Origin: a virus
Reading direction: 5' to 3' (one strand)
IMG/VR virus record: IMGVR_UViG_3300025093_000018
Coordinates: 1-64,000 of that record
DNA: 64,000 nucleotides
This document shows, piece by piece, positions 48,492 through 54,723 of the stretch. The notes beneath the pieces are model-generated. The model was given only the letters and a program-made list of their open reading frames with translations, was not told the origin of the DNA and did no database searches. How positions within the stretch are numbered: the stretch's first letter is position 1; every line of letters starts with the position of its first letter. A program made the translations under genes and the position numbers.

Positions 48492-48710
48492 TTATTTCGA
48501 ATGTACTAAATCTTTAGTATTAAAGATCTGTTCTTGATATTCTCCTTTATTTGTAAACCAAAAACATAAAACACCCATTAGCTGAGGTTTATTAGTCTTC
48601 TCATCTTTCATTCGACTTTTCTTGATCTCTTTAACGATCATTTGAGGTCTAAACATAATTTCCTGTTTCAACTCTACAACTTCTCCAGGAACAAAATATA
48701 CCATACTCAT
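48492..48710 (-). CDS. YodC/DUF2158-like small protein
   Basis: F.PGEVVELK...P.M.V...V.C.WF...F...L pattern. Confidence 0.6.
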   Translation of the reverse strand: MSMVYFVPGEVVELKQEIMFRPQMIVKEIKKSRMKDEKTNKPQLMGVLCFWFTNKGEYQEQIFNTKDLVHSK

Positions 48711-48814
48711 AACTTATTAACATTAAAATTTATATTACTTTAATATAAGAAAGTTTTTAATAAGGTCAATGGGATTCGCGATTCGCGTATTGCATATCGT
48801 GATATGGAATATTG

Positions 48815-48887
48815 TTACCCCGCTAGGACTCGAACCCAGATCTGCGGGGCCGTAACCCACTGTTTTATCCAATTAAACTACAAGGCA
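48815..48887 (-). tRNA. tRNA-Arg(ACG)
   Basis: Cloverleaf; anticodon arm GTGGG-TTACGGC-CCCGC; GGTTCGAGTCC T-arm. Confidence 0.9.
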
Positions 48888-48893
48888 ATATAG

Positions 48894-48964
48894 AGCACCT
48901 GGTAGGATTCGAACCTACGTCTGAGGTTTTGCAGACCCCTGCCTAGCCACTCGGCCACAGGTGC
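48894..48964 (-). tRNA. tRNA-Cys(GCA)
   Basis: GCACCTG/CAGGTGC acceptor, U73, CT-GCA-AA loop. Confidence 0.92.
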
Positions 48965-48968
48965 GTAG

Positions 48969-49039
48969 CACGACAGGAAGGATTCGAACCTTCATGATAC
49001 GGTTTTGGAGACCGATCAGCACAACCTACGCTCTGAAGT
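48969..49039 (-). tRNA. tRNA-Trp(CCA), atypical acceptor and D arm
   Basis: CT-CCA-AA loop, good T-arm, G73; two acceptor mismatches. Confidence 0.75.
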
Positions 49040-49107
49040 AAATATTGTTATTTATATCCGATTAGTAAGGTTATAAGTGACTAACCAGATATAAATAACA
49101 AGTTTTG

Positions 49108-49190
49108 TAGCCGGGGCGGGAATCGAACCCGCACGTCCTAGGGACAACGGATTTTAAGTCCGTCGCGTCTACCTGTTCCGCCACCCGGCC
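49108..49190 (-). tRNA. tRNA-Leu(TAA)
   Basis: ACGGA-CTTAAAA-TCCGT, long variable arm, A73. Confidence 0.93.
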
Positions 49191-49252
49191 ATAGATTATA
49201 TTTGTTTCATTACCATTCACGTACAGTGAACAGGGACTTTTATTGAACATTG

Positions 49253-49333
49253 TAGCTTCGGTGGGATTCGAACCCACAAACCTCTTGCTTCTAAGGCAAG
49301 GTACTCTTCCATTCGTCTTTACGGCACGAAGCT
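49253..49333 (-). tRNA. tRNA-Leu(TAG), short variable loop, enlarged D region
   Basis: AGCTTCG/CGAAGCT acceptor; CTTGC-CTTAGAA-GCAAG. Confidence 0.8.
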
Positions 49334-49338
49334 ATTTG

Positions 49339-49414
49339 TAGCCCTAGAGAGGATCGAACTCTCTTTTCCGCAGTGAAAACGCGACGTCCTAACCAACAAT
49401 TAGACGATAGGGCC
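49339..49414 (-). tRNA. tRNA-Glu(TTC)
   Basis: GGCCCTA/TAGGGCT acceptor; TT-TTC-AC loop. Confidence 0.88.
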
Positions 49415-49421
49415 ATAAAAC

Positions 49422-49449
49422 AAAAAACCCCGGTGGTTACCGAGGTTCT
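49422..49449 (-). terminator. Attenuator terminator of tRNA operon 1
   Basis: AGAACCTCGGT-AACC-ACCGGGGTTTTTT, ending 7 nt upstream of tRNA-Glu. Confidence 0.85.
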
Positions 49450-49490
49450 TTAGTGTTTAACTTTAAAACTTTAAATTATGTCAATCAAAT

Positions 49491-49577
49491 TCAAATATCT
49501 TTAGCGCATACACCAGAACCTCCGTTGGATTCTTCCAACAGCCATAAACAAAGTTCTAATGTGCGTAATGTTTTCAT
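49491..49577 (-). CDS. Leader peptide 1 MKTLRTLELCLWLLEESNGGSGVCAKDI
   Basis: Hand translation; codons 4-16 are L,R,E,C,W except one Thr; contains antiterminator GAGGTTCTGGTGT. Confidence 0.8.
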   Translation of the reverse strand: MKTLRTLELCLWLLEESNGGSGVCAKDI

Positions 49578-49581
49578 ATTG

Positions 49582-49589
49582 CAAATTTA
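49582..49589 (-). promoter_or_regulatory. Bacteroidota -7 promoter element TAAATTTG
   Basis: Matches TAnnTTTG; 4 nt before the leader ATG. Confidence 0.7.
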
Positions 49590-49616
49590 ATAATAAAATT
49601 TAAAAGTAAAATGGGG

Positions 49617-50063
49617 TTAATCGTAAACTCGAACTTCTATAGTGTGATTTTTATAAAACTCGTTATTTACATAAGTTCCAGCAGAGTTAACCATTTCATA
49701 ATAAATAGTATTTACATCTTCCCAATACGCTAATACGTGACTATTACCATTTTGTGCTGTATTATTATGAAAAACTGCAGTTTTACCTTCTGTAAATACT
49801 CCAGCTAAGGTCATATAATAACCACCTGGGTACCCAGCATAACTCCAAACAGGTGTTCCTCCTAAAGTATTTTCTAATACAGTAGCATCAGGAGCACTAG
49901 TACCTGATTGTGTTAATGTTGCTGTATATACTCTATAGGGTCTTACAGTCTTATTGGCTAAAGCTATAAGTTCCTCTCTAAGTCTATTAATATCTTTTAC
50001 ATCTTTACCAGTATGTTGTATATTGGCTTTGATAGAATCTGTAGTATCAGATACTTGTCCCAT
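49617..50063 (-). CDS. Putative structural/fibre-tip protein
   Basis: YRVYTATLTQSGTSAP...LENTLG...IEVRVY domain. Confidence 0.55.
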   Translation of the reverse strand: MGQVSDTTDSIKANIQHTGKDVKDINRLREELIALANKTVRPYRVYTATLTQSGTSAPDATVLENTLGGTPVWSYAGYPGGYYMTLAGVFTEGKTAVFHNNTAQNGNSHVLAYWEDVNTIYYEMVNSAGTYVNNEFYKNHTIEVRVYD

Positions 50064-50089
50064 AATTGATTATTTTTAATTAAATTTTA

Positions 50090-50524
50090 TTAACTCTTAA
50101 CTGACCAATCAATTACCATTGCAGCGTCTAATGCGTTAGAAGCGTGAGCATTAAAGATCTTAATAGTAAGGGTATCATCTGTAGGCTCTACTTTAGAGAT
50201 TACAGGCATTCCAGCTCCTGTATAACTAGAGATTACAGCTGTAACAATTGAACCTGTAGTTAGTAAAGTATTAGAAATAGTTAATACAGTTGCTTCTGTA
50301 AGAGCAGCAGTTGATAACGCAGCAGTAGTAGATTTACCAACTGAGTTATTTAATGTAGGTGTTGCACCTGTTGTTGTGTTGTCTGAAGCTTCACCTGTTA
50401 AGTAGTTAGCTACATCAGTCATGAAGTTTCTAAGGGTCGTAGTAAAATCTTTTCTATCTGAATTGTATTGTAAGTCAGCTAAGATTCTAGTTTTAAGACC
50501 CGCGGATCCTGTAATAGTTGCCAT
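50090..50524 (-). CDS. Putative head fibre/decoration protein
   Basis: Thr/Ala-rich 144 aa, codon bias of a highly expressed gene. Confidence 0.5.
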   Translation of the reverse strand: MATITGSAGLKTRILADLQYNSDRKDFTTTLRNFMTDVANYLTGEASDNTTTGATPTLNNSVGKSTTAALSTAALTEATVLTISNTLLTTGSIVTAVISSYTGAGMPVISKVEPTDDTLTIKIFNAHASNALDAAMVIDWSVKS

Positions 50525-52928: not shown

Positions 52929-53002
52929 TACTCCCGGTAGGATTCGAACCTGGAACCGTCCCCTTAGAAGGGGGATGCTCTATCCAGTTGAGCTACGGGG
53001 CC
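52929..53002 (-). tRNA. Chimeric tRNA-Arg(TCT), probably a fusion of two tRNA genes
   Basis: Perfect D and anticodon arms (TCCCC-CTTCTAA-GGGGA) but T-stem CCAGG/CCTAC and acceptor GGCCCCG/CGGGAGT mispair. Confidence 0.75.
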
Positions 53003-53006
53003 AAAT

Positions 53007-53040
53007 AAAAAAGCCCCGGAACTTTGTAGTCCGAGGCTTC
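53007..53040 (-). terminator. Attenuator terminator of tRNA operon 2
   Basis: GAAGCCTCGGACT-ACAA-AGTTCCGGGGCTTTTTT just upstream of tRNA-Arg. Confidence 0.85.
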
Positions 53041-53064
53041 CTGTTATATATGAATTATTCTTAC

Positions 53065-53157
53065 TTACATATTTACAAATACAGATAGCCGCGGACTCCG
53101 TCTCGAATCGACAGTTCCGTTACTCTTAATGCCTGTATTTATAATTATTGCTTGCAT
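53065..53157 (-). CDS. Leader peptide 2 MQAIIINTGIKSNGTVDSRRSPRLSVFVNM
   Basis: Hand translation; contains antiterminator AGTCCGCGGCTATCTGT; preceded by near-consensus TTATATTGC. Confidence 0.78.
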   Translation of the reverse strand: MQAIIINTGIKSNGTVDSRRSPRLSVFVNM

Positions 53158-53189
53158 GTTGATTGCAATATAAATATTAAATTTTAAAC

Positions 53190-54545: not shown

Positions 54546-54577
54546 CAAAAAGCCCGAACTCTTTAAGAATCCGGGCT
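54546..54577 (-). terminator. Attenuator terminator of tRNA operon 3
   Basis: AGCCCGGATTCT-TAA-AGAGTTCGGGCT followed by TTTT, upstream of tRNA-Pro. Confidence 0.85.
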
Positions 54578-54604
54578 AATCAGCTTAGTATATGTATGAT
54601 CACA

Positions 54605-54682
54605 TTATAACACACTAATATCACCCAGAGAGCTAAAGGCCATCGGCTGAAAATAAAATGCGTTATGTTGTGTTTTTCTCAT
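54605..54682 (-). CDS. Leader peptide 3 MRKTQHNAFYFQPMAFSSLGDISVL
   Basis: Hand translation; codons 5-16 are Q,H,A,F,Y,P,M except one Asn; contains antiterminator TCTGGGTGATATTAGTGTGT. Confidence 0.8.
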   Translation of the reverse strand: MRKTQHNAFYFQPMAFSSLGDISVL

Positions 54683-54715
54683 TGAAGTTATTTCTTCGTT
54701 TTGTTTATCGTACTG

Positions 54716-54723
54716 CAAATATA
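54716..54723 (-). promoter_or_regulatory. Bacteroidota -7 promoter element TATATTTG
   Basis: Exact TAnnTTTG upstream of leader 3. Confidence 0.7.

Follow-up and report, generated by a model that had tools for sequence, protein, structure and literature searches.

The leader-peptide attenuators of enterobacteria, such as trpL, hisL, leuL and pheL, act on genes for biosynthetic enzymes, and some of them are multivalent: the ilvGMEDA leader responds to Ile, Leu and Val, and the thr leader to Thr and Ile. Transfer RNA (tRNA) genes are usually regarded as promoter-controlled and the tRNA arrays of phages as constitutive cargo. Here, we describe a leader ahead of tRNA genes in a stretch of 64,000 nucleotides (nt), called the window below, which corresponds to positions 1 to 64,000 of the IMG/VR record IMGVR_UViG_3300025093_000018 and belongs to a marine phage of the crAss-like lineage. 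All attenuator features lie on the minus strand, where a short open reading frame (ORF) and an intrinsic terminator precede six tRNA genes. From its sequence and from in silico folds, we read this arrangement as a probable leader-peptide attenuator of transcription, in which the decoding speed of the ribosome would gate a phage tRNA operon, and put the probability of this reading at about 0.78.

The locus shares several properties with the enterobacterial attenuators: a short leader rich in control codons, the alternative pairings 1:2, 2:3 and 3:4, an intrinsic terminator directly before the regulated genes, a region 1 that lies within the control codons, an ORF that runs across region 2, and several amino acids per leader. 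Unlike them, it is directed at tRNA genes instead of biosynthetic enzymes, and it reads five amino acids (six tRNA species) together through isoacceptor-specific codons. It also differs in its phage-borne, Bacteroidota-type setting, in which a Shine-Dalgarno sequence is absent and the start codon follows a -7-like box after 4 nt. The leader families of Rfam (Trp, His, Leu, Thr, Phe and others) gave no match at gathering score, and with E values up to 1 the only Rfam matches of the leader region were sub-threshold ones to PsrR1 and rimP, which rest on the terminator hairpin.

Attenuation of a component of the translation apparatus by a leader peptide is represented by pheST of E. coli, in which the attenuator with the pheM leader controls phenylalanyl-tRNA synthetase. 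Both systems involve a loop on the supply of charged tRNA, but pheST is chromosomal and concerns a synthetase for one amino acid, whereas the tRNAs themselves are the product here. T-box riboswitches bind uncharged tRNA directly, without a ribosome or an ORF. The present locus resembles them in its predicted terminator/antiterminator switch, which would report the state of specific tRNAs, and no T-box was detected with Rfam at gathering score or at E values up to 1.

The nearest functional parallel in print is the trn operon of Anabaena sp. PCC 7120, a long and supernumerary tRNA array with horizontal mobility, which is normally silent and is induced by impaired translation (PMC8421152). The control of this array is attributed to direct repeats over the -10 box and the transcription start, a putative repressor site, in contrast to the leader attenuator proposed here; in the text of that article, 'attenuat-', 'leader peptide' and 'terminator' do not occur (PMC8421152). 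A further article mentions a tRNA operon only in passing (PMC3082878). In the full-text literature, no published leader-peptide attenuator ahead of tRNA genes was found, with subscription journals and supplements lying outside the reach of the search. The layout is that of a known multivalent attenuator; the target class, tRNA genes, is new.

Leader codons and alternative RNA helices

From 5' to 3', the unit consists of a TAnnTTTG box, the ATG, a 28-codon ORF, a spacer, the terminator, tRNA-Glu and five further tRNA genes that extend to position 48814. The spacer between the leader ORF and the terminator is A/U-rich and 35 nt long. The parts of the leader are the following.

49582 to 49589, minus strand: TAnnTTTG box TAAATTTG, a candidate Bacteroidota-type -7 promoter element, placed by motif scan 4 nt 5' of the ATG
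49491 to 49577, minus strand: leader ORF of 28 codons plus TGA, MKTLRTLELCLWLLEESNGGSGVCAKDI, with the ATG at 49577 and the TGA at 49493-49491
49530 to 49568, minus strand: control codons 4-16, of which 12 of 13 are read by the downstream tRNAs according to the codon count
49551 to 49565, minus strand: region 1, the 5' strand of the anti-antiterminator, inside codons 5-9, from minimum free energy (MFE) folds
49522 to 49541, minus strand: inner hairpin of 8 pairs with the loop AGAA
49510 to 49522, minus strand: region 2, the switch strand, codons 19-23, which pairs with region 1 or region 3
49442 to 49456, minus strand: region 3, the partner of region 2, overlapping the 5' arm of the terminator, from folds and shuffles
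49421 to 49452, minus strand: intrinsic terminator (regions 3:4) of 13-14 pairs with the loop AACC and a T-run, -15.8 to -16.9 kcal/mol

Leader codons 4-16 read TTA CGC ACA TTA GAA CTT TGT TTA TGG CTG TTG GAA GAA. With the sole exception of ACA, they encode Glu, Leu, Trp, Cys or Arg (CGN), exactly as an initial annotation of the window had read them at these coordinates. That annotation had also proposed to calculate the chance of such an enrichment. The codons readable by the downstream tRNA set make up 15.3% of the codons in those ORFs of the phage genome that comprise at least 150 amino acids (aa), and with this codon usage the binomial probability of finding at least 12 of them among 13 is 1.8e-9. 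For comparison, all ATG ORFs of 15-60 codons on both strands of the genome (n=692) were scored by their best 13-codon stretch. The leader, with a score of 12, was the only one that reached at least 10, and the runner-up score of 9 was found in two ORFs. The match is specific for the set that follows: the leader scores 1 against the Pro/Met/Ala/Tyr/His/Phe/Gln set of the same genome, and when tested with the Glu/Leu/Trp/Cys/Arg set, the genome's two other leaders reach 2 and 1.

Folding of the 202-nt leader gave a z-score of -4.78, which was equalled by none of 200 shuffles. In the predicted structures, the leader RNA has the classical four-region (trp-type) layout. The 1:2 helix, the anti-antiterminator, consists of 12 pairs between 49562-49551 (codons 6-9) and 49521-49510 and encloses the inner hairpin; three further pairs connect 49565-49563 of region 1 with 49507-49505. 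In the MFE fold, the terminator stands apart from this helix. Regions 1 and 3 are alike because both complement region 2. The calculated energies are -21.6 kcal/mol for 1:2 with the inner hairpin, -22.6 kcal/mol for 2:3 and -16.9 kcal/mol for 3:4.

An antiterminator in which 49510-49522 captures the terminator 5' arm via 49442-49456 had been proposed in the initial annotation, and RNAduplex reproduces this pairing with -18.2 kcal/mol for the 2:3 duplex alone (49522-49510 with 49456-49452 plus 49449-49442). In silico, the 2:3 helix and the terminator exclude each other. Within the ORF, the terminator 5' arm pairs best with -19.0 kcal/mol, a value attained by none of 300 shuffled ORFs. Region 1 of the predicted structures would lie under a ribosome that is stalled at the control codons.

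Two other parts of the initial annotation call for comment. The hairpin that it considered as a possible pause site exists (49541-49522, -9.1 kcal/mol). Its 3' arm is part of region 2 in three relatives, and it is therefore assigned to the anti-antiterminator. The annotation had further assumed that nothing competes for the antiterminator strand and that a failure of translation would consequently lead to read-through. This overlooked the 1:2 helix with codons 6-9, which is present in the window and in all four relatives whose tRNA cluster likewise starts with tRNA-Glu. As 1:2 is made first, the default without translation would be termination, as in trp. Before region 4 emerges, however, 1:2 and 2:3 are nearly equal in energy, and thus the outcome without translation would be a matter of kinetics.

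In the proposed mechanism, host RNA polymerase would initiate just 5' of the ATG and transcribe the 28-codon leader, in which codons 4-16 would be read by the tRNAs of the six downstream genes. When one of these charged tRNAs is scarce, its codon would be decoded slowly and the ribosome would be parked on region 1, so that region 2 would be free to pair with the emerging region 3. The 2:3 helix would block the terminator, and the polymerase would enter the Glu, Leu, Leu, Trp, Cys and Arg(ACG) genes. During fast decoding, the ribosome would either lie over region 2 (codons 19-23) or be gone with 1:2 re-formed. The 3:4 terminator would then form, and transcription would stop 7 nt before tRNA-Glu, where the T-run ends.

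Ribosome positions were modelled by a 30-nt unpaired mask, and the transcript was folded after cutting just before region 4. In the window leader, 8-10 of the 13 nt of the terminator 5' arm paired upstream when the A site was placed at codons 1-14. This number fell to 6 at codon 15 and to 1 at codon 16, and none of the arm paired upstream for codons 17-26; with the mask at the stop codon, the 1:2 helix re-formed. The stall codons that would give read-through in this model would thus take in the control codons. A broadly similar behavior is predicted for all five leaders of the clusters that start with tRNA-Glu: the arm pairs upstream at codons 1-13, and this pairing disappears or drops strongly when the ribosome lies over region 2.

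The promoter assignment relies on the TAnnTTTG motif, which we take to be the Bacteroidota-type -7 promoter consensus. The box is located 4-6 nt 5' of the start codon in six of the seven leaders of the Glu/Leu type. This placement would fit a promoter of the host type and a leader mRNA that is leaderless or nearly so.

Conservation and matching of leaders to tRNA sets

A set of 97 homologues of the terminase TerL was assembled, of which 45 were aligned, and 77 viral loci were retrieved (L-numbers below refer to these loci). Among the 78 sources, the loci and the phage genome, ARAGORN found at least four tRNAs in eight (the genome, L003, L010, L012, L032, L058, L070 and L077), one to three in seven and none in 63. 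The cluster that starts with tRNA-Glu occurs in five sources (the window, L003, L010, L012 and L032), and TerL of the four relatives is 62-69% identical to that of the window phage. The leader, the hairpin with its T-run and the gene order are kept in all five. The control parts read LRTLELCLWLLEE in the window, LVTLLECRLWLEE in L003, LYTLECLWLEE in L010, LHTLLERCLWLES in L012 and LRTLLERCLWLEK in L032. A DNA pattern made from two shared leader words gave five matches in viral contigs, of which two were true (L004, and L006, which is the L003 contig) and three were intragenic chance matches. The same pattern had a single match in metagenome contigs, a chance match in high-GC DNA. The far end of the L031 record gave no match, and this record is a linear fragment.

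The 1:2 hairpin of the ORF is more stable than expected in each of the five sequences (z = -3.5, -2.6, -2.8, -2.3 and -2.8; 0-4 of 200 shuffles equal). These whole-ORF scores replace a shuffle test of region 1 on the 16-nt 2:3 segment, which was uninformative in four of the five sequences because 1:2 and 2:3 use adjacent parts of region 2. The best ORF partner of the terminator 5' arm lies within codons 14-23 in all five, and when 300 shuffled ORFs were used for comparison, it was attained by fractions of 0.000, 0.017, 0.013, 0.003 and 0.037. L003, L012 and L032 have an equivalent of the inner hairpin that differs in sequence. Regions 2 and 3 vary and yet stay complementary: per-sequence folds, read by eye, show an exchange of A-U for G-C from L012 to L032 and of C-G for U-A from L032 to L010, and L010 has altogether different sequences in both regions. 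In L032, deletion of one nucleotide after the control codons has changed the frame of the peptide tail, but region 2 is still crossed by an open frame, and its nucleotides are retained, as are those of region 3. The stop codon follows region 2 by at least four codons in all five sequences, including the frameshifted L032. Judged from these sequences, conservation concerns the RNA in the 3' half of the leader and the codon content in the 5' half, the pattern that an attenuator leader should show.

The six genes behind the window leader are listed here in the order of transcription.

49338 to 49414, minus strand: tRNA-Glu(TTC), 49 bits with Rfam, called by ARAGORN only at a relaxed threshold
49252 to 49333, minus strand: aberrant tRNA-like gene, 'Leu(TAG)', with a UAG anticodon arm (Leu CUN), which aligns with the Leu(TAG) genes of the relatives
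49107 to 49190, minus strand: tRNA-Leu(TAA), called by tRNA searches, solid
48968 to 49039, minus strand: weak tRNA-Trp(CCA), 25 bits with Rfam, found by relaxed ARAGORN, which aligns with the Trp genes of the relatives
48893 to 48964, minus strand: tRNA-Cys(GCA), solid
48814 to 48887, minus strand: tRNA-Arg(ACG), solid

Four of the six tRNAs named in the initial annotation (Glu, Leu-TAA, Cys and Arg-ACG) are therefore secure, as judged by these searches, and two require qualification. The 'Leu(TAG)' gene was called by neither ARAGORN nor Rfam at default settings; its D region is over-long and its variable loop short, and read by eye, its anticodon arm is clean and shows UAG. The Trp(CCA) gene stays below the Rfam cut-off of 29 bits and has two mismatches in the acceptor stem. 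In L003 (2102-2175), L010 (5505-5579) and L032 (5433-5507), the tRNAs with a UAG anticodon are 74-75 nt long and devoid of the long variable arm of bacterial tRNA-Leu. L012 alone has an 85-nt form, and in the window copy (49252-49333, minus strand), the D region is also expanded. Leu(TAA) and Trp are separated by a spacer (49041-49106) that is filled by an 11-nt inverted repeat, TTATTTATATC / GATATAAATAA, and has sub-threshold Rfam matches to miRNA-like hairpins. From the last tRNA to the next ORFs (48814-48470, minus strand; 72 aa, 200 aa and then the terminase), no terminator was found, and read-through past the attenuator may also feed the packaging genes.

The window contains two further leaders of this kind.

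54546 to 54723, minus strand: sister attenuator with the leader MRKTQHNAFYFQPMAFSSLGDISVL, the control part QHNAFYFQPMAF and a terminator at 54577-54551, ahead of Pro, Met, Ala, Tyr, His, Phe and Gln
52929 to 53173, minus strand: orphan third leader with codons for I, N, T, G, K, S, V, D and R, with only Arg(TCT) behind it

In the sister attenuator, 11 of 12 control codons match the tRNAs that follow, and a TATATTTG box is located upstream. The codons of the orphan leader served to predict the tRNAs that should be found behind its counterparts in relatives. This prediction was borne out in L003, where the homologous leader, in the unit at 407-1790, heads Arg(TCT), Lys, Met, Gly, Asp, Asn, Ser, Ser, Thr, Ile and Val. 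Jointly, the three window leaders cover all 20 amino acids.

Leader and tRNA content were compared over the fixed range of codons 4-16 in 15 leaders from seven phages, with the orphan leader of the window and unit 2 of L077 set aside. Codons for the leader's own tRNA set account for 9-13 of the 13 positions, in comparison to means of 1.1-4.2 for the sets of other types. L058 and L077, in which TerL is 41-42% identical to that of the window phage, have their tRNAs grouped differently, and their leaders are regrouped to match; examples are LRHIELLEQPLQ ahead of Pro/Glu/Gln/His/Leu/Leu/Arg and DIATIVRVGGIDKI ahead of Ala/Lys/Ile/Gly/Met/Asp/Thr/Val/Arg. Six differently composed leaders each fit their own tRNA set. 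The correspondence extends to isoacceptors and to losses. The Arg codon is CGY in all four leaders ahead of Arg(ACG) and AGA in all five ahead of Arg(TCT). L010 is devoid of the Arg(ACG) gene and of any Arg codon in the leader, and unit 2 of L077 lacks the Lys and Arg tRNAs together with K and R in its leader, whereas unit 2 of L058 has both. L070 contains a tRNA array without a leader. A leader-peptide attenuator matched at the isoacceptor level, as proposed in the initial annotation, is consequently supported by codon statistics, masked folds, four related contigs and the tracking of composition.

The Pro codon has been lost from a Pro/Met/Ala-type leader in L029 (5796-6152; QQM for QPM), and behind this leader follow a terminator, a tRNA-like stretch ending in CCA and then only Gln(TTG). 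This unit looks partly decayed.

Alternative readings and the nature of the signal

Several observations weigh against an attenuator that is switched by the ribosome. The motif TANNTTTG (TAnnTTTG) is not enriched in the window, in which it was found 81 times versus 81 expected. At equilibrium, the full transcript favors the terminator, with a probability of 0.99 for stalls at codons 1-8 and of 0.47-0.90 for codons 9-13. Read-through would therefore need co-transcriptional kinetic trapping of 2:3, as in trp. With the ribosome at the stop codon, the masked folds of L003, L010 and L032 still favor 2:3. Conservation was assessed on five related sequences only, and the covariation of 1:2 and 2:3 was taken from per-sequence folds. 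RNAalifold on the MAFFT alignment recovered only the inner hairpin and the terminator, with two pairs changed on both sides, because in the alignments of the five leaders, the window sequence is misplaced at region 2 and at the terminator. In the window cluster, Leu(TAG) and Trp(CCA), two of the six tRNAs, look degenerate. The match between leader and tRNA content is also imperfect: L010 keeps TTA codons without a Leu(TAA) gene, and L012 and unit 1 of L077 have CGT and CGA, respectively, without an Arg(ACG) gene called by ARAGORN.

The strongest of the other explanations retains the identical hardware and replaces the signal. Classical attenuators sense charged tRNA, and the leader could respond to amino acid starvation through tRNA charging, which would tie tRNA synthesis to host nutrition as a stringent-like input. 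A stalled ribosome cannot distinguish a missing from an uncharged tRNA, and the masked folds and codon statistics fit this explanation equally well. Extra tRNA, however, cannot relieve a shortage of amino acids, and the output would not correct the input. With the sensed tRNAs themselves as products, the circuit would instead exert negative feedback on tRNA supply. Furthermore, the distinction between CGY and AGA and the joint loss of codon and tRNA gene in L010 and L077 favor tRNA species over amino acids as the signal. We therefore consider a starvation signal unlikely, although it deserves to be kept in mind.

A second explanation accepts that the ORF is translated and that stalling matters, and places the readout elsewhere: stalling would affect how a precursor made by constant read-through is processed, how stable it is or how RNases reach it, or it would tune the late genes that follow the tRNAs. 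Transcripts may reach the packaging genes, given that no terminator was found between the tRNA cluster and the next ORFs on the same strand. In addition, the T-run is just 7 nt away from the 5' end of the tRNA, which is the place where RNase P cuts. This explanation is improbable in view of the canonical hairpin and T-run directly ahead of the first tRNA in all five sequences, and of an arm partner that is always found inside codons 14-23 of the ORF, which is the specific signature of competition between a terminator and an antiterminator.

Finally, an ordinary constitutive terminator of the upstream gene block, in which the ORF would encode a conserved micro-protein or be open by chance and the tRNAs would be expressed separately, is hardly credible and was rejected: the protein gene upstream of the leader does end 39 nt ahead of the ATG, where a terminator would be expected anyway, and the N-terminal part of the leader peptide is fairly well conserved among the relatives, but the codon content (P = 1.8e-9, unique among 692 small ORFs), the 7 nt between T-run and tRNA-Glu that leave no room for a promoter, the unit in L003 that follows another tRNA array without a protein gene before it, the L032 peptide tail that is frameshifted while the RNA is kept, and the fit of six differently composed leaders to their own tRNA sets all contradict it.

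The attenuator reading describes a textbook trp-type switch that is aimed at the tRNAs themselves, multivalent for five amino acids and isoacceptor-specific. If it works as we read it, phages would have a self-correcting tRNA supply, and the question of why they carry tRNAs would become directly testable, since the leader names the codons that the phage expects to be limiting. The leader would also serve as an annotation tool, from which the tRNA set that follows could be foreseen even where it has been lost (52929-53173), and as a compact, portable and codon-specific sensor for synthetic biology.

A broader proposal, for which we regard the odds as balanced, is that in this crAss-like lineage each tRNA block is transcribed only when a ribosome finds one of the block's own tRNA species limiting. 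In that case, the phage would replace, on demand and isoacceptor by isoacceptor, those host tRNAs that are mismatched to its codon usage or destroyed during infection, either by host shut-off or by anticodon-nuclease defenses. This would constitute a way of controlling tRNA genes that is general and has not been published so far, and the first attenuator family in which the leaders reveal the tRNA content of a locus, present or lost.

Genome context and minor observations

The phage genome consists of one contig of 80,990 bp with a G+C content of 33.5%. Among the sequencing runs listed as containing this stretch, three are DNA runs and none is an RNA run. Its TerL is 21-27% identical to that of named crAss-like phages in tblastn searches. 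A blastn search of positions 48700-50100 against named phages returned only tRNA-level matches and one DUF285 match. According to PHROGs, the terminase and portal genes are located a short way downstream of the tRNA cluster, and among the 10 neighboring ORFs searched, only the terminase, the portal, a GroES-like protein and a replication protein were named.

Outside the window, ARAGORN called a permuted tmRNA gene at 73243-73678 of the genome, which encodes a 23-residue tag ending in LAA. Among the TerL homologues P0005, P0014, P0038, P0040, P0044, P0059 and P0064, several are 822-1141 aa long and contain an intein or homing-endonuclease domain (PF14528), and P0040 additionally has PF05204. 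In L003, an ORF of 46 aa (655-795), which is lipoprotein-like with a Cys after its hydrophobic N-terminus, is situated between Arg(TCT) and the remaining tRNA array, and ORFs are found at the same spot in L010 and L032.

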